A DNA stretch of 63,304 bases, counting the filler, from Hausera hauseri (Eukaryota): assembly GCA_046269625.1 (NCBI GenBank). It is 12 parts of 12 records of this genome, joined end to end, with 100 filler letters (N's around TTAATTAATTAA, not from the genome) between each part and the next. Parts side by side here need not be neighbours in the genome. Positions count along the whole stretch, not along the records: positions 35,794 to 39,894 come from JBJURY010761984.1; 11 more parts are not named here. The stretch is one strand, 5' to 3'. This document shows positions 20,701 through 57,774 of this stretch, piece after piece. The first letter of the stretch is position 1; each line of letters begins with the position of its first letter. The notes beneath the pieces were generated by a model. It saw only the letters and a program-made list of their open reading frames with translations, was not told the origin of the DNA and made no database searches. The position numbers and the translations under genes were made by a program.

Positions 20701-22622
20701 TCTTAAAAACATCCAATTGCCACGTACGACCACCAAAATGCGTTGCTTCCTTGGCACACTCTACTTTGTACATAAATATGTGCCATATTGCTCGGAATTA
20801 ACAGCTCCATTCGCACACCTAAGCGGCGGAAAAAAACATCAACGAATTTAATAAACACGTGAATTGGTTGACAAATTCGACAAATTATGTGACGGAATTA
20901 AAACCGTCGACATTCTAGCTTCTTCCAAACCTGAAGCAGAACTTATCCTCACCACAGACGCCTTAACCACCTCAGTAGGCGCTGTACTCCACAAGGTCTG
21001 CAAGGAAGAAAACCAACCATTGGAATTTTTTTGTCGCAAACTAACCGCACCTGAAACCAGGTATTCCACGTTCGATAGAGAACTGTTGGCAATCGTTTTA
21101 GCCCTCAAACATTTCTCACACTTACTCGTCGCTCGTCATTTCACTCTACAAACCGATTACAAACCCTTACTTAACATCATGGCCATAAAACACCCTTCCA
21201 CACGCGAAGAACGGCAAATATCATACTTATCAACATTTAACTTCGAAATTAAACATATTAACGGAGTTAACAATTTAGTTGCTGATTTTATATCGAGGTC
21301 GGTTAGTTCGATTAATTTTTTACCGATCTTTACGCAAGAACAACTTCAACAGAATCAGTCACCTCAAGACATGCTTAAGTCTTTTAAATCTTGCACAATC
21401 GTTGACGGCGTGGCTTTAGACACCTCTAAATTAGGCAATTCAGTAATAATTCTCGCACCTTCATTGCAAAGGCAAGCATTTCACCACGTGCATTCACTAC
21501 AGCCACTTTTCATCTATTGCACCGACAGGTAATATGGCCGTCAATGCGTTTTGATGTGCAGGCATGGGTTAAGGAGTGTGTGGCATGCCAAAAATACAAA
21601 ACAACTAAGCATTTAAAGCCACCATTATTTCACTTTCCCTGCATATCGCGTTTCGAGTCCGTGCATATTGACACCGTTGGCCCTCTTCTTCCATACAACG
21701 GTCATCAATTCATACTCATCATGATGGACCGTTCATCGCAATGGCCAAAATCCATCGCTTTGCGAAGCACTAACACGACACCATAGCTGACGTTTTCATT
21801 CGCACATGGATTAGCATGTTCGGATCACCTCGCTTCATCATCACGGATCAGGGTCCACATTTTGAGTTCAACCTGTTCAAATCCCTCGTTAACCGACTGG
21901 GGATCCACCACTTACATACTACGCCTTATCATCATCAATCGAATAACCTCCTAGAACGTTTCCACCGTACATTGAAAACGTCACTAAGAATTCTCGCAGA
22001 GTCTAACAGTAGATGGACCAATCTTCTTCCGTTCGTTTTGCTTGGCTGGCGGAACACTCCGTCCACTTTTACAGGATGCTCACCTACTGAAGCCTTATTC
22101 GGAGTTCCTGTCCGATCATTATTCGAACTGACCGCCCCAGACGACACTCCCACGGATGAGACGATACGGGCGGCGCAAAATCACTTCGTCGAGGTTAGCA
22201 AGGATTCGTTTTGCAGGATACTTCACAAAAATAAAACATACCTACCTGAACATTTGTACACAGCTAAATTCGTATGGCTGAAAAATCAGGCTCCTTGCGG
22301 TTTCCAGCCACGGCACCTGGGGCCCTATAAACTTATGCAGCTACACTCGCATAACGCCATCATCTCCAAAGACGGTAAAGACTTCACAGTACACATCGCC
22401 AACCTAAATCCAGCTTTCCTTGTCGACGACACCTTACTACCTGATACGCCAACTTCTTTTCTTACTCCTCCACTCCCTGCTATCCCTACATCTATTACTA
22501 TACCACTTCCACCTTTCTCGTCTGCGCCAAGTCTTGCTCCATCATTTCCTACACGTCTTCCTTCTATTCCTACCAATCTTCCTATCTCTACCACTACCTC
22601 TGTATCATCTCCTTCCACTCTT
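17757..22622 (+). mobile_element. Ty3/Gypsy CsRn1-like (family A copy 2), decayed; UBL-gag-PR-RT-RH-IN
   Basis: UBL ends HLRIRGG (18100) followed by MNSPP; Gag CHCC (CYYHRRFDTNAQKCCIGC); protease LLIDTGADISLLP; RT 20183-20851 (YIDE); RH 20864-21300; IN 21517-22430; Pro/Ser-rich tail. Colinear with copy 1. Confidence 0.93.
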
Positions 22623-24614: not shown

Positions 24615-25403
24615 TCATCCGCGTAAGTCCGCTTCCGAATCCGATTCATCTCGCGGAGGTCGCGGGTCAAAGTGGTATGATGTAGTGGGTCTTTGGGGAA
24701 ATATTTCTACTATCTTTTTACTCTTTCCATTAGAGAAATATCTTAGTCTGGTAGCTTCCGCTGTACATACTGGACAAGTCGTTTTCCCGTTTTTCAGGGT
24801 CCACGTTTCTAAACAGTACCGACAGTACTTGTGGGTACAATCCATATTATCCAATACTAAAAATCCTTGGTATAGATTTGCATCGCAAACGGGGTATTCC
24901 TCTTTTTCACCTCCATCTATATCTACTAGTTTTTCATCAATTTCAATTCGTTCGAACACGAGTCCTTTTTTGTCTTGGTATAAATATCCATATAGTCGTT
25001 TTTGTTTAGCATCTATAGAGCTTTTCTTGGGGTCGTCTGACACGGTAAACAAGGTCCATTCAACGATTTCTTGTTCATTCAAGTCGGGTATTCCGGTTCT
25101 CTTGTATTGCCTCTTAAGTTTTACTCGAACTTGGGTATCCACTGGGATAATTAGCCGATTGGTTCCGTTTTTCGACTGAAATATCGGGGCTAGGTATTTA
25201 CCAATGGTTATGACTTTTCGGACGTATCCGTTTCCGCTTACAATTTTTCTAGGAACAGTAGAGACATAGAATATGGCTTCTTGGATCTTACTCTTGCTAT
25301 AATATTCAGCCATGACGAGTATGCGGGTATATTCTTTAACCTGGCCGAATTTGGTTACTATAATTGGGGTTGGTTCTTCCCATTTTATTCGAAGTACATT
25401 CAT
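24615..25403 (-). CDS. Accessory ORF with C-terminal RING finger (first Cys replaced by Tyr)
   Basis: YPVC-x12-CTH-x2-CRYC-x12-CPVC at 24765-24896, a C3HC4 pattern. Confidence 0.7.
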   Translation of the reverse strand: MNVLRIKWEEPTPIIVTKFGQVKEYTRILVMAEYYSKSKIQEAIFYVSTVPRKIVSGNGYVRKVITIGKYLAPIFQSKNGTNRLIIPVDTQVRVKLKRQYKRTGIPDLNEQEIVEWTLFTVSDDPKKSSIDAKQKRLYGYLYQDKKGLVFERIEIDEKLVDIDGGEKEEYPVCDANLYQGFLVLDNMDCTHKYCRYCLETWTLKNGKTTCPVCTAEATRLRYFSNGKSKKIVEIFPQRPTTSYHFDPRPPRDESDSEADLRG

Positions 25404-25675
25404 CTCTGTTTTGGGTAGTCCGCATTTGGGTGTTTTAGTTCTTGGTTCGTTGGATTTTTCGGCTTCCTGTCGTTTTAGTTCTTCCGTGGGTTTTGTTGTT
25501 TCTTTTTCATTAATGGATATACGACTGCGAGTTGACGGTTTAATCCCTTCAACCTGGTTCCTACTGGTCTTACTTTTCTTTTTACTAATATATTCAAAGA
25601 AGGAAGTTTTCGCCTTTTGTCTTCTCGGTAGCTCTCCAGTATTCGGTTTCGGTCCTTCCAGTGTCTTTTGAGGGG

Positions 25676-26611
25676 TTAATCCAATCTCAGTTCGAGTCTG
25701 ACCGATTGATGAATTTTGCTAATTGCTGGACGTTTCAACTGGGTTGTTTTGAACTGTAACCTAGAACCGTTATGTCCTTGGAGCTCAATTTGTCTATATA
25801 TTGGATATTCACTAAATTCCTTTCGGAAGTTTTGAATCAAGGTCTTTGGGTTATTGTCAGACATCATATTCAGTCGGGGTTCTCTTGGTTTCCACTCGTG
25901 TTCCCATCTTAAGGAAATATAAATGTCTCTTATAAGTCGCGTTCGTTGACTTTCTGCCATCAATTTGGGAAATCTGAATTGTTTGCCATTCATGGCTTCT
26001 ATCAACATATTGAACTGCGATTCACGTGATGCTGAAGGAAGCAGACATCCTTTTTTTCTCATTAGGCTGTTCTCCACTTGGCTTATAACAGTTGGATTGC
26101 GACTTAGTTCCCGAATTCCTGCTGTGTATTCCTGTCTAATTCCTAGCCTTTCTAGCACTTCATGTACTCTGAATCCAGTTACAACGAATCCGTATAAGCA
26201 ATGGCTTATGTCTTCCTGGATTTCTAAGAAATCCTTGCCTTTTTCAAGTTGACATTTTGTGATTCCGGTAACGTCGGAAAATGTATCCTTAATTTTGTTT
26301 CGAGGTGCGATTATTTTGTTTGTGAGTTCTTCTCCCTTTACACTTCGAATAGAGACTTTAATTGGTGTGTACCAACCATCATCCTTCTCTCCATAATTTA
26401 CGGCTAAAATTCGAATATTCCGGCCGTCTGGAACTAATCTGAAGGACTCTACACTTTGTTCAATCTCATCTTCCGAGGGCTTCTGCATGCATAATAGGCG
26501 TGGTAACAGTTTCATTATTTCAGTCCGTAGGGTTAGTTCGAACATCAATTTGGTCTGAAGTTTAGCAACTCGAAATTCCAAGGTATGGTCCATAAGACTG
26601 TAACAACACAA
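25676..26611 (-). CDS. Accessory ORF with REX4/ISG20-like DEDDh exonuclease fold, catalytic residues not conserved
   Basis: VSIRSVKGEELTNKIIAPRNKIKDTFSDVTGITKCQLEKGKDFLEIQEDISHCLYGFVVTGF follows the REX4 pattern VSIV...G..L....V.P...I.D..T..SGIT...L..A..F..VQ..V..LL.G.ILVGH. The ExoI DxE position reads NYG. Confidence 0.6.
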   Translation of the reverse strand: MCCYSLMDHTLEFRVAKLQTKLMFELTLRTEIMKLLPRLLCMQKPSEDEIEQSVESFRLVPDGRNIRILAVNYGEKDDGWYTPIKVSIRSVKGEELTNKIIAPRNKIKDTFSDVTGITKCQLEKGKDFLEIQEDISHCLYGFVVTGFRVHEVLERLGIRQEYTAGIRELSRNPTVISQVENSLMRKKGCLLPSASRESQFNMLIEAMNGKQFRFPKLMAESQRTRLIRDIYISLRWEHEWKPREPRLNMMSDNNPKTLIQNFRKEFSEYPIYRQIELQGHNGSRLQFKTTQLKRPAISKIHQSVRLELRLD

Positions 26612-26952
26612 TTCGTATGTAATAAATTTCCACCGTTGACCTTTTTGTGTATGTCAGGATTGTCCTACGATCCTGTATTGGATTTCTCCATCAGCGACAT
26701 GTATGTACATTTGCTGATGTGTTGGTTCATAAGGAATTAGGTCCCTTAAGTGGTACACTCGTACATCCTTGGAATTTCTCATAGCGTACAGTCGGACCAA
26801 TCTATTCTCTTCTAGACCCCATTTCAGCCCGTTTGGTATTTCACTCTCTTTGNNNNNNNNNNNNNNNNNNNNNNNNNNNNNNNNNNNNNNNNNNNNTTAA
26901 TTAATTAANNNNNNNNNNNNNNNNNNNNNNNNNNNNNNNNNNNNNNNNNNNN

Positions 26953-27143
26953 ATTAGAGCCGTCCCTTTCAAATGAAGGGGTAATCTTTCTACTCTTTGC
27001 TTGTCATCCCAGCCAAAACTTTTGGAATATACCTCGTATTCCATCATGAAATCTTGAATATCTTCTTTACCTGAAAACTTCTTCATAGGTAAAGTGAAAT
27101 CAGCCTTGGACTGAATCACTTGTTCTACTTTATTGCTTGCCAT
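26953..27143 (-). CDS. Ty3/Gypsy Gag N-terminus (partial)
   Basis: KFSGKEDIQDFMMEYE.Y....GWDD..R...LPLHLKGTAL, a retrotransposon capsid N-terminal motif. Confidence 0.85.
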
Positions 27144-27272
27144 GGCTTCTTCCTCACTTAAAGTCTCTAGGTACTCTAATCCAAAAGGTACTTCTTCTTC
27201 TGGGTGATAAACTGTTCCTTTCCTAGTAGGAATATTGAGGCTTTTCTAATCTAAAGGTCCTAAAAATGAGTT

Positions 27273-27291
27273 ATCCCGGGTCACGGCACCA
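27273..27291 (-). promoter_or_regulatory. Primer-binding site, tRNA-His type
   Basis: TGGTGCCGTGACCCGGGAT lies 3 nt after an LTR-like ...AACA end and is complementary to the tRNA-His 3' end. Confidence 0.85.
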
Positions 27292-27294
27292 GTT

Positions 27295-27852
27295 TGTTCA
27301 ATCCTCACCAATTTACTTCGTAAATGACACTAATTTATTATTTAATTAGTGAAGAGAACAATTAACTTTTATTTCAAATCGTTTGGTGGAAGTAGTCGTA
27401 CGTAATCCTACCTAATCGTCAGTCGGTAATGTGTATAACAAAAGTTCGATGTTAATTGCGTTATTTACTAAGGTTTACTATCCTATTGTTTTACTTGGGT
27501 ATTAAACGGGCGGCCGTCAGGTAGAGTTAGACCTGGACGACCAATGGCCAAATTATTTAAAGATTATTTGGTTAGTTTCTTTACTTAATATAGAACAAAC
27601 AATATCTAAAAATTTTATAATTGATACTGAAATGCAATAAAGAAAACGAAAACTTTAACATGCATACAAAAATCCAAAAATTAACTTACAAGATGACATA
27701 GTAGACCAGAAATAATCGAAGACAATGTCAATGTCTCTAGTGATAAAATGTACAGCTTATATACTTGACACATGTACAAACATAAATGTCTATAATAGGA
27801 CATTACGTCCAAATTAGGGTAGAATCACTAAAATATATCCATAATACACACA
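27295..27852 (-). repeat. 5' LTR of the Gypsy element above (outer boundary approximate)
   Basis: Ends CA next to the PBS; TATATAA near 27760; TGTG candidate start near 27850. Confidence 0.55.
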
Positions 27853-31396: not shown

Positions 31397-34300
31397 CCCA
31401 CCTAATTTTGGCGTAGTCTAATTGGTCGGAGATCTTGACACAAAACAAAGCATTTTCTGATCTGCTCGTGGCTTCACAAATCCAACCACTTTCAGTTTAA
31501 ATTTTGGTTCTGAACAAAGTGATCTCATCATGTTTTCACTATACCCACCACAGTTCTGTTCAAATTTTGGTTGTGGACAAAGTGATCTGGTCGTGGTTTC
31601 ACTATTCCAACCCCTCTTAATTTTGAGTGTAACCTGATTGGTCGGAGATTTTGACACTGAACAAAGCATTTTTGGAGCAGAGTGGGTTTTACTATTCCTA
31701 CCCACTTTTGTTCTAATTTTGGTTATAAACAAAGTGATATGGTTGTAGTTTCACTATTCCCGCCCATTTTGTTTGAATATTGGTTCTGAACAAAGTGATG
31801 TGATCATAGTTACACTATTCCAATCCCACTTATTTTTCGTGCAATCTGATGGGCCGGAAATTTTAACATTGAACAAAGCATTTTGGAGCAGAATGGATTT
31901 CTCTATTCCCACAAATTTTTGTTTAAATTTTGGTTGTGAACAAAGTGATATGATCGTGGTTTCACTAATCCCACCCCCCCTTTTGTTTAAATTTTGGTTG
32001 CGAACAAAGTGATCTTGTCGTGGATTCACTATTCCCACACGCTTTAGTTCAAATTTTGGTTGTAAACAAAGTAACTTTTTCGTCCATTCACTATTCCCAC
32101 CCCAGTTTCGTTCAAATTTTGGTTGTAAACAAAGTGATCTGATCATGGTTTCACTTTTCCCACTCCACTTAATTTTGGTGTAATCTGATTGGTCGGAGAT
32201 TTTAACACTAAGCAAAGCACTTTTCGGAGACGAGTGGGTTTTACTATTCCCACCCATTTTTCTTTAAATTTTGGTTGTGAACAAAGTGACCTGGTCGTGG
32301 TTTTACTATTTCCAGCCCCCTTTTTCTCAAATTATAGTTGTAAACAAAGTGATCTGCTCGTGCTTTCACTATTTTCACCCTTCTTTCGTTCAAATTTTGG
32401 CTATGGACAAAGGGATCTGGTCGTGCTTTCACTATTCCCACCCCCTTCCTATTCAAATATTGGTGTTGAACAAAGTTATCCTGTCGTGGTTTCACTATTC
32501 CCACTCCACTTAATTTTGGTGTAATCTGATTGGTCGGAGATTTTGACTCTCAACAAAGCACTTTTTGGGGCAGCGTGTGTTTCACTATTCCCAACCATTT
32601 TTGTTTAAATTTTGGTTGTGAACAGAGTGATCTCGCGGTGATTTCAGTATTCCCACTCCCTTTTTTTCAAATTTTATTTGTGAACAGTGATCTGATTATG
32701 GTTTCACTATTCCCATCCCATATAATTTTTATTCTAATCTGATTGGTCGGAGATTTCGACACTGAACAAAACATTTTTTGGAGCAGAGTGTGTTTTGCTA
32801 TTCCAAATTATTTTTCTTTAAATTTTGGTTGCGAAAAAAGTGATCTGATCATGGTTTGACTATTCCCACCCCACTCCATTTTGGTGTAATGTGATGGGTA
32901 AGATTTTCACACTGAACAAATCATTTTTTGGAGCAGAGTGGGTTTTACTATTCCCACACATTTTGCTTTAAATATAGTTTGTGAACACAGTGATCTGATC
33001 ATTGTTTGACTGCTCCCACTCCACTTCATTTTGGTGTAATCTGATTGGCCGGAAATTTTGACACTGAACAAAGCACTTTTCGGAGCAGAGTGGGTTTTAC
33101 GATTCCCGCACATTTCTGTTTAAATTTTGGCTGTAAACAAAGTAATCTGGACGTGGTTTCACTTTTCCCACTCCTTTTTAGTTTAAATTTTTGTTATAAA
33201 CAGAGGGATTTTGTTGTGGTTTCCCAATTCCCTCCGCTTTTCGTTCAAATTTTGGTCGTAAACAAAGTGATCTTGTCGTGATTTCACTATTCCCACGCCA
33301 TTTTGTTTAAATTTTGATTGTGAGCAAAGTGACCTAATTGTGGTTTCACTATTCCCACTGACTTCTATTTTGGTGTAATCTGATTGGTCGGAGATTTTGA
33401 CACTGAAAAAAGAATTTTTTGGAGCAGATTGGGTTTACTATTCCTACCCATTTTTGTATAAATTTTGGTTGTGAGCATAGTGATCTTGTCGTCGTTTCAC
33501 TATTCCCACCCTAGTGTTCTTCAAATTTTGGTTGTAAACAACGTGATCTGGTCGTGGTTTCACTATTTCCAACCCCCTTTTTGTTCAAATTTTGATTGCA
33601 AACAAAGTAAGCTGGTCGAGGTTTCATTATTCCCACCCCGCTTAATTTCCGTGTAATCTAATTGGTCGGAGATTTTGACACTGAACAAAGCATTTTTTGA
33701 AGTAGATTGGGTTTTACTATTCCCACCCACTTTTGTTCAAATTTTGGTTATGAACAAAGTGATCTCTTCGTGGCTTCCCTATTTTCACCCCCCTTTCCTT
33801 CAAATTTTGGTTGTTATCAAAGTGATCTGGTCGTGGTTTCACTATTCCCACCCCAGTGTTCTTCAAATTTGGTTGTGAACAAAGTGATCTTGTCGTGGTT
33901 TCACTATTCCCACCCACTTTTGTTCAAATTTTGGTTGTAAACAAAGTGATATTATCGTGGTTTCACTATTCGCACTCCGTTCTATTTTGGTGCAATCTGA
34001 TTGGTCGGAGATTTTGACACTGAACAAAGCACTTTTTGGAGCAGAGTGGGTTTTTCTATTCCCACCCATTTTTCTTTAAATTTTGGTTGTGTACAAAGTG
34101 ATATGATCGTAATTTCACTATTCCCAGACTATTTCTGTGCAAATTTTGATTGCAAACAAAGTGATCTGGTTGTGGTTCGATTATTCCCACTCCCTTTTAG
34201 TTTAAATTTGGTTGTGAACACAGTGATCTGGTCGTGGTTTCACTATTCCCACCCCACTTAATTTTGGTGTAATCTGATTGGTCGGAGATTTTGAATCTGA

Positions 34301-35587
34301 ACAAAGTACCTTTTGCAGCAGCGTGTGTTTTACTATTTCCACCCATTTTTGTATAAATTTTGGTTGTGAAATGGGGATGTGATCATGATTTCACTATTTT
34401 CACCCCCTTTTTGTTCAAATTTTGGTTGTGCAAAAGGTGATCTGATCATGGTTTGATTATTCCCACCCCACTTCGTTTTGGTGTAATCTGATTTGTCGGA
34501 GATTTTGACACTGAACAAATCATTTTTTGGAGCAGAGTGGGTTTTGCTGTACCCACCCATTTTTCTTTAAGTATTAATTGTGAACACAGTGATCTGATTA
34601 TCGTTTGACTGTTCCGGCCCCACTTAATTTAGGTGTAATCTGATTGGTCGGAGATTTCGACACTGAACAAGGCATTTTTGGAGCAGTTTGGATTTACTAT
34701 TCCTACCAATTTTTGTATAAATTTTGGTCGTGAGCGAAGTAATCTAGTCGTGGTTTCACTATTCCCATCCCACTTAATTTTGGTGTAATCCAATTGTCCG
34801 GAGATTTTGAAAATGAACAAAGCATTTTTGTACCAGAATGGGTTTCTCTATTCCCACAAATTTTTGTTCAAATTTTGGCTGTGAACAAAGTGATCTGCTC
34901 GTGGTTTCATTATTCCTATTACCTTCTTGTTTAAATTTTGGTTGTGAGCAGAGGGATCTCGTCGTGATTTCACTATTCCTATTTCCTTTTTGTTTAAATT
35001 TTGGTTGTGAACAAAGGGATCCGTTCGTGGTTTCACTATTCCCACCCCAGTTTTGTTCAATTTTTGGTTGTAAACAAAGTGAGCTGATCATGGTTTCACT
35101 ATTCCCACCCCATTTTTGATCAAATTTTGGTTGTAAACAAAGTGATTTTGTCGTGGATTCACTATTCCCACCCCAGTTTTGTTCAATATTTGGTTGTAAA
35201 CAAAGTGAGCTGATCATGGTTTCACTATTCCCACCCTACTTTAATTTGGTGTCATTTGGTTGGTCGGAGATTTCAACACTGAACAAAGCACTTTAAGTAG
35301 CATAGTGGGTTTTACTATTCCCACGCATTTCTTTTAAATTTTGGTCGCAACAAAGTGATATGGTCTGGATTTAACTATTCCCACCCTATTTCTGTTTAAA
35401 TTTTGATTGCAAACAAAGTGATCTGTTCGTGGTTTCACTATTCCCACCCCATTTCTGTTTAAATTTTGGTTGTAAACAAAGTGATCTGGTCGTGGATTCA
35501 TTATTCCCGACCCACCTAATTTTGGCGTAGTCTAATTGGTCGGAGATCTTGACACAAAACAAAGCATTTTCTGATCTGCTCGTGGCT
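31397..35587. repeat. Satellite array with two interleaved monomer types (~62 bp and ~85-90 bp)
   Basis: Recurrent TTCACTATTCCCACC...AAATTTTGGTTGTGAACAAAGTGATCT unit interspersed with TTTTGGTGTAATCTGATTGGTCGGAGATTTTGACACTGAACAAAGC unit. Confidence 0.95.
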
Positions 35588-35793: not shown

Positions 35794-38700
35794 TAGTGGG
35801 TACCATTTAGGCATTTTTTGCTCCTACAAATCGATTTCGTCATTGGAACCAGGTTTCTTTTTTAATGGAATGGTTAATCTTACGGGTTTTGCTCTACCTA
35901 CATCTTCCTCGTTTTGGGCGATAATTGACTTATATTTGCATAATAATTCGTAAAATTGACAATATGCTTCTGCTGAAAATTTTGCCTTAACATGAGATGG
36001 AAACTCGTCATATTTGTAGGGTTTTTCTTCGATTGTTATTGCCGATACTTTATAAGTATGACCCAATGTAGTATTGGCATACAACTTTACGGGAGTTGGC
36101 GCGTTATTAACCAATCTGACTGGTACTCTTCCCGTCGTTACTCTTGTCAAAATGTTACTGAGTATAATATTTGGGTTAACGTCTCCTTGTGGCTCGAAGT
36201 ATACTGGTTGATCATCCTCCTCGCGTATTTGAGCATAAATTAGAATTTCGGTTCTGGGCGAAATATTTTCGTCGACGGGAATCCATACTTCTCCTAGTTT
36301 TCTCTCTTTCATTGCCTTAATACCTTTCACTGGTTTGAGTTCTAGTACTTTCCCCGTATGTAAATTTATTGCGATATTGGGTAATTGTTTTAGTATGTAA
36401 CAACCTAACACTACATCATCGGTTAGTTGGTCCATTACGGCGAACTCGTGTCGAAGAATTTGGCCCATTAATTGGACTAAGGGCCTCCATTTAAATTTCG
36501 GTTTGGATTCTTGCCCGAAGACTCTGATAATAATGATGGCTGTAGTTGTTTCTGGAGTGTTGGCGGTATTGATTTCTCTGATCCGGTGTCGATTAAGGCA
36601 TAGACTTCCCAATCTTCAATGGTAACTTTAGTGAAGGGTCGCCCTACCATAACTGTTCCATAACAACTTGACACGTCCTTTGCTCGTTTAATTGAAGAAA
36701 TCTTATGTCCGTTTACCGTTATTTCTGGCGATGAAATAATATTTTCGGTCAACTGTTTCAGTTCTTCATTCGGGTATAAGTCATTAATCGCTATGCTATT
36801 CTCACTGTTTCTAATTAATGGTTCTTGTGCTATTGGATTTTGGGGCGTTTTCATTTCTTGTATTTCCCAGACTGTTCATCTTGTCTCTATATTACGAGCT
36901 ATTCTCGGTGAGTACAATAACCTATGGTCATTTTCCGCTTGTCATTGATTATTGATCTGCATTTTCTTTAATACTCCGTATTGTTTTGTTCCTTCGTAAG
37001 GGTCCTCATAGTTAAAAGGTTTCCGATGGAATTTCAATTTGCATGACACCATAGATGTTCTATCGCAGTCTTCATATATTGGAGCTGTTGATGGAATGAT
37101 GGGCCAGGGTGCCTTAATTACTGAATACATCTTGTGTCTGTTTTGTCTGAGGATCGCTTCTCCTCCCTTAGGCTCGTTATTATCGAAGTAACTCTTTGTG
37201 TTGTTAATTTCTTAGCTTTGCGCTTTGACAGAAATGTGGGTCTTTCTTGTCGTTTATAATTATGGTTGCCGATATGGCGTTCAACGTCATTTTTATATCG
37301 GTTTTCTTCGTATGCTTTAAGCATTTTGCCGAACGTTGAGATAATTGCGGTTAAGATTTTGCAGGAAAATCTTGTTAGCGTAAATATTTCGTACCCGTTT
37401 ATAACCGCTTGGATTACCGCTTTTACTAGTTGTACCAAGAAATAGATTGCTAAAAATCCAGATTCAGCTTGTCCAAAGATTAAAAATCTTTATAGAGTAT
37501 TTCTGTGGTTACCCGTTGGTAATGGGTTGCACCAAACAAGGATTCCCATTTAGCCTGGTAGCGGGTATCATCTACTACTGATGCCATAACTCGGTTTAAT
37601 TCGTGTGTACGTTGCCGTGGAAAAGCGAGAAATTGTCGAAAAGCTTCAATCTCTCTGGGCCTGTAAATACCCTTTTCAGACGTGTCCTAAAATTTGTCAT
37701 CAGTAATTCCTTTCGCTAAATTAGTTCTAGTTAGTCTTTTGAGGATGATAGTGACACCTCCATTCGGTAAGCTAACCCAATTCGTTTCGCTACGCCTAAA
37801 CATTGGTTCATCCAAACTTGCCTTACAATCCTTTAATATTGTAGGTTGTGTTGCGTTGTCCAGCAGCAGTCTAGTGAGGGGCGTGGCTAAGCGCGAAGTG
37901 TTCTGATAGATCACAGGAAGTTCTTGTATACACCGGTTTTCTTCGACATTAATTGATACGTCTCTTTTCTCGCACTCGTAGGTCAGTAGGACCGCGCCAG
38001 TAACTAGGCCGAAGATTTCTTCTCTCATGGGAATGATCGGTGAAGCTAACTCAGGGTTCGCATAAATAAGAGCTAATTTTGTCCTCATAATTTCCGTATC
38101 TAATTTGCAGTCATTAGTTATCATTTTTTGATATAGTTCGGCTATCCCGATTTGTCCTTTAAAATAAAAATAATCGTCTCGAGTTTTGAGATAATCTTCG
38201 ATTCTAATATCTTGCGTTTCCAAGTTATATGTCTTCGCGTTTATCTCCGTTTTTGCGACGAAGAACGCTTCGTTGTTAGTGGTAAACATTACTACTTCTC
38301 AACGGGAAATCATTTCCTTTTTATGAATTTCAATCCGTGCTGATCAGAGATTAATATCGTAGGTGTGTGATGCTCTGATACGCCTTCGCGTACCCTTGAA
38401 CTGATATCAGATCTATCTACGTATCGTTTCCCGGTAGTTTCATTAAATTTTAATTCCTTAATGTTAATAAAGTTACAACCTTTTCCAGTGGGCGGTTCCC
38501 ATATGACGACTGAACTTCTAAAGGCACAGGTTCCATCCTGTATATGACACTTTTGGTTCTCAGTATATAGCTTAGTAACGCTATGAAACATCACCTTCTG
38601 TACTCGCATTTCCGATTCGTAAAAGTCTACTACTACTACGCTTGCTTCTAATCCCTTTCCGGTGTCATATTCCGCTCCACTACAGTGCCCGTTGTGCATA

Positions 38701-39894
38701 TCTAACCTTCCGAATACTATCTTGTATGCTCTGATTATCTTTCCGGGCTGCATTTCTAATTCCATACTATCCCATTTTAGTCTCCCTGTTTCTTTGGCCT
38801 GTCTGCAATGTTGCCTTTCTAAATTCATTGGAATTGAAGAGGTCGTTGGTTTGATTATAGAGAAGTGTCCGTGCATTAGTCCACAGTGGAAGATGCTACG
38901 AGATCGTCTCAGCATACATTCCATGCCATCCAAAAATATCAACTCTTGTTGTTGGTATAGGAAATAGCACTTCTTTTTTCCAATTTATGTGGTCTGGCAT
39001 CCTCACGTGCTTCTAAGTCCATTAGTGAGTATTTTTGTACAAGCTGAAATCTATCGCAATCGTAGACAGTGACAGCACCCATCTGTTTTATTAACATCCT
39101 TATAGTGAGCAAACTGATTAACCAGTTAGATTCATTCTTCCGGTAGTTATTATCCGTTGTCGTCAAGTTCAGTATGATGTCTCCGAATCCATTACTACTG
39201 TTCCTCTTATCGTCTTCCTTGTCAAACAATTTTGGCCAATTCAATTCATACGGGAGCTTTCTAGATGCTTTCCGCGCCAAACTTGTAGCTCGATTTAGTT
39301 CATTTTCTCGATTTGGATTTGTCTTAATTGCCAAGTACAATAATACTTAGCTCTTCTGTCGTATTTTCCACCATAATTTTCTCAACTACTGCGTCGTCAG
39401 TTAGGCTGCTTTTTGACAGCTTGAAGTGCGAATTTATCATTGTGCTAGCTGCGTTAAATATCGCCTTTTCTTTATCATCTAATGTATCTCCGCGAAGACT
39501 TGAATAATTTACAATACGTATTAAATTCTTCATTAACTCGTTTAACTCTTCATGGTCGGCGCTAAAGGTACGAATCGACATCTGTTTCAGCTCTCTAATT
39601 AACTCTCCGTTATAGTTAACTTCTTCTCGGGCCTTCCTAGGTCTACCAACTGGGTGTTTTGGCTTTTGGACATTGGTTATCATTCCAGTTATTGGCACTA
39701 GATTCTTGTCATATTGTTCCTTGTCTTCATCTGTATGTAAATACTCGAAATACATCGCCTCATCTAGTACTCCCATGATTTGCCCTACGCATTGTTCCGT
39801 TTTAGCCTTCCGCGTGGCTTCTTTTGTCTGTTCATTAGCTATTATTACTACTATTCGATTTGTTTCGTCGGGAATAATTCCAACATCTACTAGT
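35794..39894 (-). mobile_element. Gypsy family B copy 2: unknown ORF - full-length glycoprotein - linker - protease - start of RT
   Basis: VYALIDTGSEKS near 36590. The post-protease domain is closely similar to copy 1, and the glycoprotein lies upstream. Confidence 0.88.
37300..39124 (-). pseudogene. Chuvirus-like (class III, gB-related) envelope glycoprotein
   Basis: Signal-like WLISLLTIRMLIKQMGA then VYDC..YSL.D; ECMLRRSR.IFHCG; GHCSGAEY; C...DGTC; VIWEP; C.....RTKLAL..ANP; G.V.G.V...YECE......C..ELPV.Y......P.TR.L; TM FG...SGFLAIYF...VK..I..VINGY. This Cys and TM pattern is that of chuvirus G and G-like endogenous elements. Confidence 0.75.
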
Positions 39895-40487: not shown

Positions 40488-42854
40488 CAGTGGTACCTCG
40501 GTTTACGAACTTAATCCGTTCCAGGATTGTGTTCGTAAACCGAAACGTTCGTTAACCGAAGCATCAATTACAATAGAAATGTATATAAATGCGATTAATT
40601 CGTTCCAATATAAAAATTTTTGTTCGTAAACCGAATTTTTCTTAACTTTAGCGTTCGTAAACCGAGGTTTAACTATAAATTTATTTTTAATTTAAGGTGT
40701 AAAAAATATCGTAATGCTTATATTTTTATAAAACACAGTTTTTGAAAAGAAACAGTTTTATTTAGGTCAATAATTTATTGCTGAAAAGGATCAACATTAA
40801 TTTCATCGGTGGTTTTTCTTTGTCTCTTGGTTTCTTTTTCTCCTGAGATTTTCGTCAAAAATGTATCGAGAGTAGTCTGTATTCTCCTTCTTTTTAGAGT
40901 CTCTTTAAAATATGATATTGCATTATCATTCATAATATTGATTGCTCGGTTTACATCAAATTTGTTTGGATGGTACTTTTCAACAAATTTAAGTACTTCG
41001 GTCCACTTATCGCAAATATCTTTAATGGTGGCACTTGTGATATATTCTTCATGTTCATCCTCAGATAACAGGTCCTTTTCAAACACTTCCTGCTTCTCAC
41101 ACGAAAGCATTTGAAGGTCTTCTGTGGTATACTTCTCGTCTGAGTCTAATACTATCTCCTCTACATCAGCATTGTTTACTTCTAAACCCATGTTTTGGGC
41201 CATTGACACAATATCCTCTACTGCATCAACTTCGGACTTGGCTTCAGAAGGGCCAACACATATTTCTATCAAACAATCCGGCCAAAGATTTTTCCATGCC
41301 TTGTTCAAGGTACGACAAGTAACACCAATCCATGCTTTATCAATAAAATTTATGCAGTGAAGGATATTAAAATGTTCCTTCCAAAATTCTCTTAGAGTTA
41401 AGTCAGTATCATTGGTAATTTCAAAACATTTTGAAAATAATTCTTTCATGTACAATTTCTTAAAATTTGCAATCACTTCTTGATCCATAGGCTGAATCAA
41501 AGGAGTTGTATTAGGCGGAAGATACATGACTTTTATGAAGTCAAGTTCATCAATCGAATCATCTTCAATATTACGAGGATGTGAAGGAGCATTATCCATG
41601 ATGAGAAGACACTTAATTGGTAAATTATTTTCCTGCAAATATTTTCGCACACCTGGTGCAAATACATCACGCAACCAATCCATAAAAAAAGCTTTGTCAT
41701 CCAAGCTTTAGTGTTTGATTTCCAAACCACAGGCAATTTAGACTTATCCACATTTTTCTTTTTAAAAACTCGTGGGTTTTCTGAGTGGTACACCAGCATC
41801 GGCTTCACTTTAAAATCTCCGCTTGCATTGCTACATAGTAAAAGAGTTAACCTTTCTTTCATTGGCTTATGTCCGGGCATTGATTTTTCCTCCTGTGTAA
41901 TAAAGGTTCTATTGGGCATTCGCTTCCAAAAAAGTCCAGTCTCATCACAATTAAAAACTTGCTGTGAAACATAACCCTCATTTGCAATGAACTCTATAAA
42001 CTCTTTTTTAAATATTTCTGCGGCTTGGAGGTCTGAACTCGAAGCTTCTCCATGTCTAACCACACTATGAATACCACTTCTTTTACGAAACTTTTCGAAC
42101 CATCCCCTACTAGCCTTAAAAAGCTCATTACCAATGACATTGTTTTCAGAGGCCTGCTTAAATAAATCTTTATGTAATTGGTTGGCTTTTTCACGTATTA
42201 TCAATTCACTAATACTATCACCAGAAAGCTGTTTCTGATTTATCCAAATCAATAATAATTTCTCTACCTCCTCTATTATTTGCGATCTTTGTTTTGTCAA
42301 GACATTCACGCCCTTTGCAACATTGGCTACCTTAATTAAATCTTTGTTTTTTAAAATTGTGCTAACCGTTGATTTCGTTAAATTAAAATCTCTTGCAATA
42401 TTGGTTGTACGAATGCCCATCTCATGTTTCTTAACAATTTCTTTCTTTTTTTCAATTGATATTTTGCGGCGTTTTGAATAAAATTTTGATGGTACCATGA
42501 AGGGATAAGAACTAAAAAATAAAACATCATCACAAATAATATAACAAACCATTAATTAAACTATTAAGATAAATCATGCATTAAATTATTAAGATTAACT
42601 ATTAATTACAATAAATATCATAACCCGTGTTTATTTAAATTTATGTGATATGTTTTAAAATAGTTTACATTAAAATGGTTTATTTAAACACTAAAAATTT
42701 AAAATATCTACGTTTTTGTTATTTTATATTTTGATGTTCGTAAACCAAAGCATGTTTGTAAACCGAGACAAAATTGACAAAAACTTTTCGAAAATTTTTG
42801 TTCGTAAACCGAATTGTTTGTAAACCGAGACGTTCGTAAACCGAGGTACCACTG
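40488..42854 (-). mobile_element. Tigger/pogo DNA transposon, full length (2367 bp)
   Basis: 23-bp TIRs CAGTGGTACCTCGGTTTACGAAC, TA on both sides, subterminal GTTCGTAAACCGA repeats. Confidence 0.95.
40775..42499 (-). pseudogene. Tigger transposase (CENP-B HTH + DD36D), one frameshift near 41700
   Basis: FKASRGWFEKF, HGEA.S.D, NCDETGLFWK, MDNAPSH, QPMDQ. The frame break falls in an A/T homopolymer run. Confidence 0.92.
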
Positions 42855-46030: not shown

Positions 46031-49000
46031 GCACTGAACAAAAGAAAAGCTTAGAAATAGCAATGCAGTCACCAACTACCTTAGAAAAGAGAAAAGTAAT
46101 AAATGGAGTACGAGTCAAATTAAGCCAAGTAATGATAACTTATTTAAGATTCTGGAAACGAAATCATTATGTAAAAGATTACTTCAAAATAAAGTCATAA
46201 AAGAATCAGAGCATCTCGCAGGAAGAGTTAACACCCTTATTAATAAGTTGAAAGCTCTAGGTATAAAAAGTACCGAAGAAAATGAAAAGAAATTAACAAA
46301 GATTCTCAATGAAAGTAACGATTTGTACCAATGTCTAATTGATGATATTGATCTCGATGAGGAACTACACCAACTATTAGAAAGATTAATTTCAATTTGT
46401 AGATATCACATAGAAGAAGGAATAACTGATGATGGGTACCCCCTATGATATCCCATTTAACTATTGATGAACTTACTGACGGAGTAAAACCGACTAAAGA
46501 ATTTGCCAAATGGACAGAAGGAATAAAATCATCGTCCGATTTCAATAAGTTTAATGAAAAGTAAGAAAAGCAGAAGATTTTTAACCTGATTTCTCAAAAG
46601 TGATTGATAAAGAATACATTGCAGCTGAAGAAAGAAGTTTGAGAAAACGTATGGAAAAATTAAAGCCACCTAGATACCATGAATTTTTAACCAAAGAAGA
46701 GAAAAGAAAACAAGAAAAACCAATAAAATATCCAGATATGATTGACAGCGACATGAGTGAAACTATTGAGAATATACCGCCGATACAAAAACGGAAAAAG
46801 CATGCTACAAAGAGAATAAGATTGTACAAACCACAAAAGGCCGGAAAAGAAATAATACGAATGCCAGTAAAGATGGTTCAAGACGCTCTTAAAGACACAA
46901 CTGAGTACGATACACAAGACAGTTTTGAAGAGAATATAAACCTTAATGATTTTCTTGAATATGACTTTGATACCATCCATCTAGATAAATTCAAAGACGA
47001 AGAGATAAATGAAAATGAAGGAATAAAATCAAAACCAACTCTAATTAAGAGAATGACCGCTCTACAAGAATTTTAAGAGGATTTAGATGACTTGCTAATA
47101 TCTTACCTTATTAGAGAGAATAATATTCCTGAAATCGAAGAAGCAGTAGAAGAATTAGCTAAAAAAGCAGCTGACAAATGGAGGTATAATGGTACGCCTC
47201 GAACCTTACTGAAATTGTTAGGAAAATACTATTTAAGTGAAAAGAAATTTATGAATCGGAAAATAACAGTGCGACCTTGGATTGACGACACCTTCTTCCC
47301 AAATCTAGAAATGAGTATTAATAGTCGAGTTGTTGATCTTGAACAAGCAATCAAATCTCAAGCACAGAAACGACTGAAACACCTTAGAATTATATACTAT
47401 GATAGAATTTTGGATCCAGAGGAACTTCTAATAAATGTAGGAATGCTTCCTGATACCATATGTAGTGTCGCAGTAAGACAAACAACAGAATTAACTCCAG
47501 AAGAAGCTAAACGGAAAATTATTAATGGCGAAAATATAACACAAGAAGAAACTATTATGGGAATAAAAGATAAACGAGGATATTTGAAACATCTTAATGA
47601 GACATTAATCGAAAATTTGAATCAACCAAATATTGACACTGATGATCAAGAAGTTGTACAGCCAATTGTAAAGAAAACTTTACTCGATCTAAATAGACGA
47701 AGTAAACGGAATAAAACTATAACGATAGCCAAGAATTTCGCTACCCAAATAATGGAATACGAAACACCAAAATTATACAAAGAGTATAAAGAGGTCAAAC
47801 AATTAGCAAGAGAATTATATTACATTGATATAGGCAAAGATCCAATAAATAATCGTTCTCCTAAATGGAAGAAACGAGTTAAAGAACAATTAAAATTCAT
47901 GAAGAATTACAAGAAAAATTCACAATGTAAAAATTTTACTGACGGTGGCATAATTCAACTCATTTTAGAAAAACCGTCACGTACAAATTTGGAGAAAGTG
48001 GTAATTCTGCTCATTTCCGAAACACCGAGTGAAAGCGAGTTGAAAGCAACAACTGGAAAAATGATCCAAGTTGGCAAATTGATTACACCACAATATGGTA
48101 AATAGAAAGATCTGCTTTTACAAAATGAAGAAGTAACTCAGTCTAAAGTAGGCCAAACTACTATAGGAAAAGCCATTTCTGAAATTACTCAGAATACCCC
48201 TCAAGAGGAAATGGTTCAAGTTGTCATGGAGAAAATGACACAACAAATTCAGAAAGATATACAAAAGACTGACGAAACGAAATCCAATGAATCATTCTTG
48301 CAATTTATTTTGTTTGTATTTATTCTATTTTCCAACTTTAGGAAATTAGGAACTGTAATGGCATATCACTGTGACAAAATCCACGAGGGAAGTTATTATT
48401 CACTCATGGATTTACAATCATGCCCGGATGCACTTCCGAAAAAACTTGAAACCATATCACAAAATTTATATATCGATTACGACAAACTACACTCCACATA
48501 AAAGGATTAGATTGCTCATTGTGAGTATCTCGCAACATCACTTGCTGTGGTCATATACATCACGATTCTTTAATACAGCCAACTACAATGCCTATATATG
48601 TGTCGTGACCGTAAATGTGGACAACGAGTGTTCAGTAAAAATTATGAAAAATATTTTATATCGGAAAAAGAAATTGCACAGGCAGATAATTCGCCAGTTA
48701 ACAGAGCTCAATTAGTGAACATTGCTAACTATATCGCTAACAGAGATGATTTCTTATTTTATCTCACCCACAAAACGATAGAGGAAATATATTCAGAAAC
48801 AATACAAAATATCTGCAGAGCAAATTTCGAGACGTTGAGGAATCGATTGGCTATTTACGCTTCAAATCCAGAAATGATAACGATAACATTACCATTTAGT
48901 GAAGGAATCCTGGGCAGAGTCCTAGGAGAAGTTTTATTTACCTACAAATGTAAGAGATTGGACTTACCATTAGTTAGAGGTACCCCATGTTATTCAAAAG

Positions 49001-50082
49001 TACCGGTTAAGTACAAAGACAAAATTCGATATGTTCAGCCAATAACTATAGTATTGTTGGCGCCACATACAATACCAACGGAAATTCAAAACTGTACAGC
49101 ACTGAACAAACCATTTATCAAATACGATAATCAAGACTTATGGGTCAGACTACCTGATAGAGATAGAGTAAAGGAATAACCAAAAAATTAATGATGATTA
49201 ATCTCAGACATTCCATCGAAACGAATATGTTTACTGACGTATCAAAGTTAGCATTGTATAGCAAAAAAGTGATTGATTTATTTGTAAAATTTTTGGCATA
49301 TCCCAGACAACGAGAGCAGGTAGTAAGCAGAAGAATACATAGACTAATCGATGATTCTGCTTGAGAAGGAAAATGGGATCGATTGTGGATGCCTGATGCT
49401 TATGCAAAAATAGTTTCAATCTTATGGCACAAAATGTGGGGTGGATTTCTAAAATTTAGACAAGTAGCTTCCGGATTTCTGGCTATTTACCTTATTCTGC
49501 AAAAATTGAAAGTTTGTATCAATTCAGTATTAAACGCTTACAAAATCTACAATCTGACGGGATTATCTTTGAGCATAATTGGTGCACTATTTTCTCCTGT
49601 TGCAAATTCATTAAAGCTTCCCATGAAAAGCAATGGGGAGGTAAATTAAAAAAACATGTGGGTTATAAGAATGGAAATCCGATATTAGAAGATACCTCCT
49701 CAAGTTCAGAGCATGTTGATGACTCACCTGGACATTACTCAAAACCTAATATTTCTAAGAAAAAGAACCGGAAAATCCGAAAATTTCCCACAATAAAGAA
49801 AACAAGACTAAAGAACAATCGTTTAGTACCATGCGCTCCGTATGAAAATAAAATACGTTCGATTGACGAACAAACAATTGACAAACTACCAAAGTTATCT
49901 GACCTTAATGATCAATACATAAAGCTACATAGCATTCCGAAATATTCACAAGAAGAAATACTTCAATATATTATTACTCAAAGTATGGAAAAGAATAGAG
50001 TATCACTACCAATTTCTCCAAAATTAAAAACACTGCCACCTATACCTTATCATCAAGTAAAATTAAATAAACCAACCAACGA
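46031..50082 (+). mobile_element. Divergent family B-like element: long unknown ORF (with UBL-like domain) - internally deleted glycoprotein - basic/Pro-rich tail
   Basis: FLQFILFVFILF..LGTVMAYHC..YSLMDLQSCPD; CRANFETLRNRLAIYASNPE; GRVLGEVLFTYKC...CYSKVPVKY...QPIT; WGGFLKFRQVASGFLAIYLIL. All are homologous to the 37300-39124 glycoprotein. Confidence 0.75.
48290..49640 (+). pseudogene. Chuvirus-like glycoprotein, mid-ectodomain deleted
   Basis: Same motifs as at 37300-39124, but the sequence jumps from the CCGH region to the RDDF region near 48620. Confidence 0.72.
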
Positions 50083-50999: not shown

Positions 51000-53677
51000 A
51001 TCGTATGAGATACTCGTCTAACGCCGCTGTATTTCTACTATCTTCTGAAGTATCTTCTTACTGATAAGTTTATCGTCAAAGTTTCAGTTTACATAATCAT
51101 CTGACGTTAGAATATGAGTAAAACAGGGGCGTATTACTATCCCCCTTTATCCTGCCTTCAACTCCAGGCAGGCGACTTCTTTCGACAGGGTTAAACTTGT
51201 CCTCACCTTCCACCCCCACAGTACCTTGGTCAAGCGCATTCTCTTTCATCATTTCCCTCTTCTACTCTCTGACGCCTTCACTCGTAACTCACCTCTGACA
51301 ATAGCTTCTCTTTGCTTGATCTTTATAAATGTCGATGAAACACCTGTGCAGTACGATGGAGGTGAAGAAGATGAAGATGATTTACTGCACAGGTTAATGA
51401 GAGCTTTACTGCTCCTCAGATGACGCCTCATCGTCAGGTGCTAGGGGCGCTGGATCGTCGCGGGCAGCTTCGGATAGAGCTGGGGTAGCTGCAGGAGGCG
51501 GCGTAGAGGCAGCAGGAGGAGCTTCTGCAGAACGTTTTCGGCGCACAAGGAACATCGTGATGGGGAGTTGTGACCGTTGTTTTTTCTTCTGAGCAAAGAT
51601 GCCCTTGTACAACGCCATTACACCGTCAATACGGTTACTGAATTCTACGGCTCTGACCATGTTGTTGTCGATTTCTTGGGCCCTTTGTTGCAGAGTCCGT
51701 GCTATGTTGCAGAGCTCTTGCAGGTTTTCCAAGGTAAGGCCACGTTCTTCATCTTCGTTGTCGTCACCGTCGTCAGCTACCTCATCTTCTTCCGCCGATC
51801 TTGTCATTTCGACGAGTTCCTCGTCGGTTAGGGGGTTAGAGTGGCACTCGATCAGTGTGTTCACTTCTTCCGTCGTCATGTCGGAGAACCCTTCAGTGGC
51901 TACCAACCGAGCCAGCCTCACAGCCTTATCTACGGCGGAGTGGTGAACTTCGTCAGGCGTAAATCCCTCGTAGTCATGGGTGACGTTTTTTGGCCACAAT
52001 TTCCTCCAACTTGCAATCAGTGTCTGCTCTTTCATCTCATTAAGAGCATTCTGAATGTTGACCAGGCACGTTGCAATGTTGTATCCCCGCCAATAGTTCT
52101 TCAGGCTGAAGGCCACGTTGTCTTCGTCGATGGAGGAGATGAGGCCCTCCATCGTGGACCTCGTGTAGAGGGCCTTGAAGGCCCGAATGACCCCCTGATC
52201 CATGGGTTGTATAAGGGAAGTGGTGTTGGAGGGCAGGAACTCCACTTGGACCCCGTCATAATGGAGACTGGTTGCATGTCCTCCTGCACAGTCTATGAAG
52301 AGGACGACCTTAAAGGGCAGCCCCTTTTCAGCGAGGTACAGCTTCACCTGCGGGATAAAGCAGTTTACGAACCAGTCGAGTGTGAGGGCTTTTGTTATCC
52401 ATGCCTTTTTGTTGTGCATCCAGTAGACGGGCAGCAAGGCTTTGTTTTTGTTTTTCAAAGCCCGAGGATTCAGGGACTTGTAAATGAAGCCGGGCTTGAG
52501 CATGAAGCCCGCAGCATTCCCACACATGAGGAGAGTCACTCGATCTTTGTGGGCCTTGAACCCTGGCCTCTTCAATTCGTCCTTATAAAGGAACGTCCGG
52601 GACGGCATCCTCTTCCAGAAGAGGCCAGTCTCATCCATGTTAAAGACCTGCTCCGGGCGATAACCACCCTCATCAATTATCTTCGGAAACTCTTCCTCGA
52701 CGTAACGAAGAGCTGCCTCTTGGTCTGCCGAGGAGGCCTCCCCATACAAAGGAACGCTGCGAAGGCCAAATCTCCTCTTGAATTTCTCGAACCAGCCCTT
52801 GCTGACAACAAAACCACGTTTTTCTCGTGGGGTAGGATCACTCGAGGCACTGGTACTAGGCTGAGGTTCATTTTCGTCGTCGTCATCACCTTCGTCGTCT
52901 TCGTTCAACTCTCCTTCAGGAACGAGGCTATTATACAGGGCTTTGGCTTTAGTCCGAATCATATTGGTATCGAGACTAACCTTCTTTTCCCGACAGTCCG
53001 ATATCCACACTGATAAGGTATTCTCCATTTTCACAATTCGCTTATTACGAGAAGTCACAACTCGCTTAGTGTCCTTGGAGAACGATATCGAGGCAGTTTT
53101 ACGGATATTCACTTCATCTTTTTTTATATAGCGAACCGTCGATTCGTTCAATCCGTAATGGCGTGCAACAGACGCATAGCTATGGCCTGCCTTAAGCATG
53201 TCCAATAAATTAACTTTCTCGTTCACTGTCATCATTTTTCTCTTCTTCTTGGGTTCACTAGAGGATTTAGAGGGTGGAGGACGTTTAGGAGCCATTTTCA
53301 AGGGCGTCACAAGCACTATTTTGCACAAAAAGACACAAGAGAACAGCAAAAATTAGCACACCTCGAGACTAAGCATCACTCAAACATTGATTTGAATGAG
53401 CGCGGTCGTCTTCGCTGGGTATGAGAGCGAAGGTGGGGGAAACGTCTAGGCCAATCAGCTTGCGAGATTCCCGAGTCGGGAGGGATATCAAATGGCGGGA
53501 TGCTAGCCAGCCAATCAGAGACGTGGATTTTGAATTGTGTGGGCACTCCCTGCCTTCTGCTGGCGTGCGGGCAACTTTCGCGCCATAATTCCTCAATTTT
53601 GAATTTTTTATGAATATTTTTGAACAATCCGCGATGTACTGAAGCCGCGATAAATGAAATCCCGCGAGGGATGACTG
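51000..53677 (-). mobile_element. Tigger element; 5' TIR present, 3' TIR not seen
   Basis: TA|CAGTCATCCCTCGCG on the minus strand, ending at 53677. The 3' boundary is undefined. Confidence 0.75.
51406..53295 (-). CDS. Intact Tigger/pogo transposase (DD30D), 629 aa from MAPKR
   Basis: Uninterrupted ORF with Psq/CENP-B HTH, SKGWFEKF, NMDETGLFWK, FIDCAGGH, QPMDQG. Confidence 0.93.
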   Translation of the reverse strand: MAPKRPPPSKSSSEPKKKRKMMTVNEKVNLLDMLKAGHSYASVARHYGLNESTVRYIKKDEVNIRKTASISFSKDTKRVVTSRNKRIVKMENTLSVWISDCREKKVSLDTNMIRTKAKALYNSLVPEGELNEDDEGDDDDENEPQPSTSASSDPTPREKRGFVVSKGWFEKFKRRFGLRSVPLYGEASSADQEAALRYVEEEFPKIIDEGGYRPEQVFNMDETGLFWKRMPSRTFLYKDELKRPGFKAHKDRVTLLMCGNAAGFMLKPGFIYKSLNPRALKNKNKALLPVYWMHNKKAWITKALTLDWFVNCFIPQVKLYLAEKGLPFKVVLFIDCAGGHATSLHYDGVQVEFLPSNTTSLIQPMDQGVIRAFKALYTRSTMEGLISSIDEDNVAFSLKNYWRGYNIATCLVNIQNALNEMKEQTLIASWRKLWPKNVTHDYEGFTPDEVHHSAVDKAVRLARLVATEGFSDMTTEEVNTLIECHSNPLTDEELVEMTRSAEEDEVADDGDDNEDEERGLTLENLQELCNIARTLQQRAQEIDNNMVRAVEFSNRIDGVMALYKGIFAQKKKQRSQLPITMFLVRRKRSAEAPPAASTPPPAATPALSEAARDDPAPLAPDDEASSEEQ

Positions 53678-57752: not shown

Positions 57753-57774
57753 TAAAATTTGATTTGTACCAAAG

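Follow-up and report, generated by a model that had tools for sequence, protein, structure and literature searches.

The window analysed here is a 63,304-nucleotide stretch of Hausera hauseri DNA (assembly GCA_046269625.1) that consists of 12 contigs, 4-9 kb each, joined via N spacers. Four of these contigs, at 35794-39894 and 9207-16820 (minus strand) and at 46031-50082 and 59309-63304 (plus strand), carry broken copies of a retroelement in which a chuvirus-like fusion glycoprotein (G, also called Env below) is encoded ahead of the protease and the rest of Pol. The source is repeat-rich, as 9639 contigs from one public run map onto the 7.6-kb second contig at an identity of at least 85%. The features of the four copies, in the direction of translation, are given below; P and L numbers denote related proteins and metagenome loci.

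39130-39894, minus strand: end of the accessory region (the Gag-Env interval in relatives), placed by comparison with P0003-P0006
39075-39145, minus strand: internal signal/anchor segment of Env, weakly hydrophobic and decayed (KD12 1.97 from 39124)
37490-39075, minus strand: Env ectodomain, full length, predicted to be of the herpesvirus glycoprotein B (gB) type (class III), from PF24664, colinearity, and cysteines
37330-37489, minus strand: Env membrane-proximal region and transmembrane anchor (PF24664 positions 544-638; KD12 2.21 from 37459)
36650-37330, minus strand: cytosolic tail/linker, basic, proline-rich, and broken (62% amino acid identity to the copy at 60263-60565)
36330-36645, minus strand: retropepsin, DTGS near 36590, frameshifted (from sequence; homologous to the RVP match at 13230-12940)
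35794-36330, minus strand: spacer between protease and reverse transcriptase (RT), at the position of the Burro dUTPase-like region (E-value 1e-17 to P0004 1202-1401)
14369-16820, minus strand: long helical accessory region, in frame with the last third of Env
13045-14368, minus strand: Env remnant, anchor, tail, and start of protease (PF24664 and RVP)
9750-13044, minus strand: end of protease, spacer, RT, RNase H, H2C2 zinc finger, integrase core, and GPY motif
9207-9688, minus strand: post-integrase extension, with a signal-like stretch (KD12 2.61) and a cysteine-containing beta-type domain, in frame with the integrase C-terminus
47131-47454, plus strand: helix and ubiquitin-like module of the accessory region (profile, independent E-value [iE] 4.8e-4)
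48280-50082, plus strand: signal, Env, anchor, and tail (PF24664, hydropathy, and alignment to relatives)
59309-63304, plus strand: second half of Env, anchor, tail, degenerate protease, spacer, RT, RNase H, and start of integrase

The full-length G lies in the copy at 35794-39894, directly 5′ of the retropepsin, as a broken gene for a predicted class III fusion glycoprotein. PF24664 (Monjiviricetes_fusion) matched it above cut-off in three pieces, at 38984-38313, 38298-37690, and 37489-37121 (E 6e-12, 2e-17, and 4e-12), and the ectodomain is interrupted by frameshifts near 38970, 38305, and 37490 and by a stop at 37689. Although in pieces, this G is colinear with intact relatives over its whole length, from signal to anchor. 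Twelve of the 14 ectodomain cysteines of the intact relative P0011 are kept, one is lost, and one falls in an unaligned gap. The signal segment aligns with the signals of P0004, P0005, and P0011; across the copies, hydrophobic segments occupy the signal positions 39124 and 48295 and the anchor positions 37459, 14028, 49464, and 59980. The stretch upstream of the signal (39130-39894) matched no family, and the contig runs out before any Gag; at its other end, it stops before RT.

The copy at 9207-16820 lacks the signal peptide and approximately the first two thirds of G, with similarity beginning at 14368, and connects what remains to Pol. One stop-free open reading frame (ORF), 14049-13045, extends from the Env anchor to the protease motif, and both a PF24664 match (E 2.4e-9) and the RVP match fall within it. 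The Env frame continues to 10297 through RT, RNase H, and the integrase core, with five in-frame stops. The Pfam matches come in the order RVP, RVT_1, RT_RNaseH, Integrase_H2C2, and rve, the YLDD (RT) and GPY motifs are Gypsy-like, and the best PDB match is Ty3-G Gag-Pol (E 3.6e-88). By domain set, order, motifs, and best PDB match, the window Pol is Ty3/Gypsy, as had been proposed. In a Pfam search, it matched none of Peptidase_A17, DUF1758, DUF1759, and DUF5641, which we take to be BEL-type Pol domains.

PF24664 also matched above cut-off at 48574-49176, in the copy at 46031-50082, where Env has an internal deletion of ~190 residues and no protease was found before the contig end. The copy at 59309-63304 begins mid-ectodomain and finishes within the integrase zinc finger. 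Stops or frameshifts are present in all four copies, which represent separate subfamilies: three share 65-69% DNA identity, and the fourth (46031-50082) is 57-60% identical over short stretches. The junction between G, tail, and protease recurs in the three contigs of 65-69% identity and is in an open frame in one. Between copies, third codon positions of G differ by 0.47-0.65 versus 0.09-0.15 for second positions (RT, 0.44 and 0.08). Since G shows the same third-position excess as RT, Env was under purifying selection alongside Pol. The full order is on no single contig and was pieced together from the four broken copies. Thus, of the order that the earlier note saw recurring at three loci, the run of G, transmembrane anchor, basic proline-rich tail, protease, and parts of Pol was found, but not a contig with the whole; its description of 46031-50082 as a divergent relative ending before any protease holds.

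A search with a 272-residue central piece of G gave 201 proteins at E ≤0.001, of which the best 150 were listed. The top listed matches were retroelement polyproteins (E 3e-37 to 6e-20), with stand-alone G proteins behind (1e-15 or weaker). Among the 14 best matches of at least 700 residues, 11 have G before protease (one by motif only), two end after G, and one has RT before G; adding two longer cluster members brings the G-before-protease polyproteins to 13. The same family is carried by three metagenome loci, and the G-before-protease junction is present in 15 unrelated records (the 13 proteins, L001, and L002). The G piece had no sequence match in the PDB and, searched alone, none among viral contigs. 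Word-index protein searches returned no relative of G and, from the Pol side, two distant proteins only, and an Rfam search gave no match.

The intact relatives consist of a single ORF with the order Gag (CCHC), ubiquitin-like, Bcl-2-like, G, protease, RT, RNase H, and integrase. L002 is a single 3703-residue ORF with the whole order: it opens with Gag and two knuckles, continues through ubiquitin-like modules and a helical region to the signal, G, and its anchor, and after the G anchor come two proteases, RT, RNase H, integrase, and a second signal, ectodomain, and anchor. Separate ORFs, including an exonuclease, follow this polyprotein, and no pair of long terminal repeats (LTRs) was found within L001 or L002. 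The Bcl-2-like helices of the relatives are weak (Pfam E 1e-3, 0.036, and 0.2). A CCHC knuckle or Retrotrans_gag lies upstream of G in 5/13 G-before-protease polyproteins and also in L002 and L003. Since Gag is further upstream in the relatives, G does not stand in Gag's place, where the earlier note had put it, and the "unknown ORF" described ahead of G in the window is the accessory stretch between Gag and G. A helix-plus-ubiquitin profile built from P0012, P0156, and P0027 found its best six-frame window match at 47131-47454 (Pfam E for ubiquitin, 0.033; Atlas ubiquitin rows, 0.75-0.77), so that one of the three copies keeping upstream DNA has this module ahead of Env. The protease-RT spacer of the window is likewise homologous to that of the relatives.

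Retropepsin motifs number two to six per polyprotein in P0003, P0004, P0012, P0153, L001, and L002, some of them after integrase; the window's second copy (9207-16820) has one. P0005, a full G-Pol polyprotein of the family, is filed at NCBI under a Flavobacteriaceae metagenome-assembled genome and is probably animal DNA inside a bacterial bin. P0002 is a 3563-residue Gypsy Pol whose long insertion between RNase H and integrase bears a precomputed Pfam PF01661, which we take to be the macro domain.

We modeled the fold of the intact natural relative P0011, which is 28% identical to the window G over the matched part, from 88 sequences (predicted local distance difference test [pLDDT] 85). Against the PDB, every listed row was a herpesvirus gB (best E 1e-13; TM 0.31-0.36 for most), and against viral structures, the top rows were chuvirus-type G (best E 3e-43; TM up to 0.60). 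Identity was 17-21% to the three best viral matches and 9-13% to gB. This model of a relative, together with PF24664 in the window, predicts that the envelope is a class III fusogen of the chuvirus-G/gB type, in line with the chuvirus-like fusion glycoprotein first proposed.

In a quick tree of central G (130 of 155 proteins kept; 22 short or excluded, three without a match), both window rows belonged to a group of 24 rows that contains every one of the 13 G-before-protease rows (Shimodaira-Hasegawa-like approximate likelihood ratio test [SH-aLRT] 95). Slower trees used 31 chosen rows, with only four viral G sampled as known viruses. Their viral side holds the Wenling fish chu-like virus and three viral contigs with mononegavirus-type polymerases, as well as a BEL-type protein and a Pol-Env protein, and the window-containing group was split from it at 98/94 and 100/99. 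The approximately unbiased (AU) test rejected a clade of window G with the Wenling fish chu-like virus (p 2.4e-4) and one with the four viral G (p 2e-36), which do not form one clade themselves. In the Pol tree, 12 G-before-protease rows, the window included, came together at 91/91 versus four outgroups. In the best of these sequence trees, window G groups with retroelement G and not with the sampled viral G, which leaves a fresh chuvirus capture unsupported.

Burro (GYPSM1), as presented in the section on it in PMC6431247 (citing Jurka 2007 and Grohme 2018), comprises giant Gypsy elements of dugesiid planarians. Its one ORF encodes Gag with knuckles, ubiquitin/SUMO-like and BCL2 motifs, env, protease, a dUTPase-like region (identified with HHpred), and RT. 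The env region matches mononegavirus glycoproteins, decayed copies are known from Dugesia japonica, and this 2019 account names Burro the first in-frame env between gag and pol. In planarians, knockdown of smedwi-2 derepresses Burro (PMC8532177). Burro and the window elements are alike in having a mononegavirus-type Env set in frame after the Gag side and ahead of the protease, a ubiquitin-like module upstream of Env, a long protease-RT spacer, and decayed copies. They differ in that the window G is 28-33% and its Pol ~34% identical to Burro-like relatives, and in that Burro's Gag, its Bcl-2-like, MATH, BIR, and ankyrin motifs, and its LTRs were not seen on the short window contigs. The Burro section of PMC6431247 makes no mention of a membrane protein after integrase.

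Comparable elements appear in the text of PMC13524379, which reports 114 Gypsy elements with chuvirus-like G and places GAG-ENV-POL gB-type errantiviruses in Nematoda, Bryozoa, and Platyhelminthes. There, the GAG-ENV-POL elements are non-monophyletic by Pol, and the entry mechanism of gB-type errantiviruses is described as unknown, the herpes partner proteins being lacking. Those of Platyhelminthes C1a resemble the window in gene order, Ty3/Gypsy Pol, and class III Env; they were chosen as intact, LTR-flanked or multicopy, whereas the window copies are broken fragments. Six Schmidtea Env rows in the PMC13524379 supplement resemble the window-containing group by eye: three motifs picked by eye from these rows are present in 10, 10, and 6 of the 15 in-group rows versus 1, 1, and 3 of the 66 other rows, and window G has two of the three. 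The Anakin elements of BEL/Pao and those Pol-Env Gypsy elements that carry a chuvirus-like G, as described in parts of PMC7642597 and PMC13524379, share the G Pfam family with the window. However, in the Anakin/Pol-Env type (P0055, P0126), G follows integrase and lies on the other side of the G tree, whereas window G precedes the protease. With no BEL-type Pol domains and G before the protease, the window elements do not fit BEL/Pao Anakin. Jingchuvirales G and herpesvirus gB share the predicted class III fold with P0011; unlike them, the envelope of the relatives is encoded inside a retroelement polyprotein. With Burro in 2019 and the GAG-ENV-POL elements already described, the window copies are neither the new lineage that the earlier note put forward as a candidate nor a new gene order. 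Thus, the gene order is real but already known, and the window adds one more divergent, dead family to a described group.

We consider it highly probable that these contigs are decayed Ty3/Gypsy fragments whose gB-type env precedes pol in the same frame, and that they likely represent a divergent Burro-type GAG-ENV-POL subfamily whose intact form is predicted to be one long polyprotein. Several observations weigh against this. The identities to relatives (28-33% for G, ~34% for Pol) come with long branches, and the four contigs, all of which stop within the ORF, yielded no Gag, LTR, primer-binding site, or target-site duplication, nor any match to the relatives' Gag profile. A Bcl-2-like domain had no significant match in the window (best iE 0.13 and 1.0), and Pfam matched no dUTPase in the protease-RT spacer of either window or relatives. 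The fold evidence belongs to P0011 and not to the window G, and the link to Burro and Schmidtea is one of architecture and motifs, not of direct alignment. Joining window G to the whole ten-row viral/insect side was not rejected by the AU test (p 0.123), and the Pol-tree grouping is not starred and was obtained with only four outgroups and without named references. The phylogenies of RT and G thus agree in part with the proposed relationship: the G and Pol trees group the window with G-before-protease relatives, but the AU result for the viral side does not exclude another placement, and a shorter RT-RNase H tree did not resolve the position of window Pol.

The long branches and the AU result would also fit an independent capture of chuvirus-like G by another Gypsy lineage that converged on the Env-before-Pol order, as would the chuvirus-type G indicated by PF24664 and Foldseek and the non-monophyly of GAG-ENV-POL elements by Pol (text of PMC13524379). 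We regard such a capture as unlikely, because the top listed matches are all retroelement polyproteins, ahead of stand-alone G, window G nests among these polyproteins in the best trees, the AU test rejects clades with the named chu-like virus or the four viral G, and the ubiquitin-like module is common to window and relatives. With retroelement polyproteins as closest relatives and a G tree that sets the window apart from sampled viral G, the recent, independent capture that the earlier note inferred is not supported.

An alternative, in which G is an endogenous viral fragment of separate origin or a chimera of the assembly beside an ordinary Gypsy pol, is suggested by the short contigs, by the repeat-rich assembly, and by the common adjacency of Jingchuvirales G fragments and Gypsy fragments in arthropods (reported in part of PMC10084718). 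This explanation is contradicted by the G-tail-protease junction, which recurs in three contigs, in an open frame in one, and in 15 unrelated records, and we consider it extremely improbable. G belongs to the element and is not a nested insertion, so that env does lie 5′ of pol within the element, as first described. A Burro-type element whose Env no longer served in fusion but persisted to tether the polyprotein to membranes, so that movement stayed within cells, would account for the loss of large ectodomain parts in two of the four copies and for the one remnant in frame with the accessory region. It would also fit the summed contig depth around the Env remnant of 9207-16820 (~490-760 in run X1 versus 5-13 for single contigs), but this depth cannot be read as a copy number, and the junction at 14368 is spanned by none of the listed contigs. 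As one copy is full length with 12/14 cysteines and the ectodomain was under purifying selection between subfamilies, we find this account very improbable.

For an intact Burro-type GAG-ENV-POL polyprotein, general knowledge of signal-anchored viral polyproteins suggests how the parts could be made. Gag and the accessory domains (ubiquitin-like, Bcl-2-like) would be made in the cytosol, after which the internal signal would thread the Env ectodomain into the endoplasmic reticulum and signal peptidase would free it. The Env anchor would return the chain to the cytosol, where cleavage by the element's own protease would separate Pol from the tail of Env and release Gag from its tether at the membrane. 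In this scheme, neither splicing nor frameshifting would be needed to obtain Gag, Env, and Pol in equal amounts, and particles carrying a trimeric class III fusogen would bud and spread between cells. This life cycle is no longer expected of the window copies, which are broken.

In all seven relatives whose sequence extends beyond the integrase GPY motif, the protein ends in a signal-like segment, an ectodomain, and an anchor; these seven are related and are not seven independent cases. The two Gypsy Pol proteins without G have no such post-integrase membrane protein. A cysteine and an L-x-P-x-T-x-Y/H motif are common to four of the five proteins examined, and L001 has a further module of this type between its proteases. 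Pfam and PDB sequence searches with the module gave nothing, and a model of the P0155 module from 7 sequences reached a pLDDT of 33. An Atlas search returned fibronectin type III clusters at 0.86-0.87, which is no more than a lead; the second membrane protein is possibly fibronectin-III-like. In the window, the post-integrase domain of 9207-16820 is cut off by the contig end and had no match to profiles built from the relatives; comparison with the three best of 7 partners gave 21, 39, and 53 of 1000 shuffles. The window likely shows the start of the module, with a kinship of position and not of significant similarity. No description of the module was found in the main text of PMC13524379, the Burro section of PMC6431247, or literature searches; the original Burro paper, supplements, or Repbase may show one.

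Two other minus-strand stretches resemble ends of such elements. At 26953-27320, the 5′ end of an LTR element has a primer-binding-site-like 12-mer at 27291, which we take to be of the tRNA-His type, and then the start of a Gag, matching the relatives' Gag profile (iE 1e-10), within which the contig stops. This stretch could supply the 5′ end that the envelope-first family lacks here, or it may come from another Gypsy. At 24615-26850, an ORF resembling the exonuclease ORFs that lie 3′ in L001 and L002 (E 4e-8 and 7e-7) is followed by a RING-finger ORF, and the stretch probably represents accessory sequence at the 3′ end of a related element.

The remaining contigs hold other repeats. Two Gypsy elements of another lineage, without G, lie at 1-9106 and 16921-22622 (68% DNA identity over 2.4 kb; long branch). 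Fragments of host genes flank them, with a PH domain at 1130-1648 and a piece of MCM OB at 16921. The minus strand of 54490-59208 carries intronless, broken host-gene fragments (DPP IV N-terminal, NAT10 helicase, and RNase III-like) and ends in a short stretch resembling the leader of these G-less elements, which looks like gene-fragment capture by that family. Pogo/Tigger-type DDE_1 transposases with CENP-B and Tc5 helix-turn-helix domains are encoded on the minus strand at 40775-42555 and 51406-53352, the latter as an unbroken 648-residue frame. A complex degenerate satellite occupies 31397-35587, and the two ends of the sequenced stretch share an exact repeat of 77 bases.

Herpes gB gets its attachment and trigger partner from gD and gH/gL. 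We tentatively suggest, as a possibility that we rate as rather doubtful, that Burro-type elements have a two-protein envelope, in which a gB-type fusogen before Pol is partnered for attachment or triggering by a fast-evolving type I membrane protein that bears fibronectin-III-like repeats and is fused behind integrase, with the window as a deep branch. If true, this two-protein envelope would answer how gB-only retroelements enter cells, and it would be the first case in which fusion and attachment fall to different proteins of a single retroelement polyprotein. The post-integrase module would then be a concrete candidate for the missing herpes-partner role in the entry of gB-type errantiviruses.

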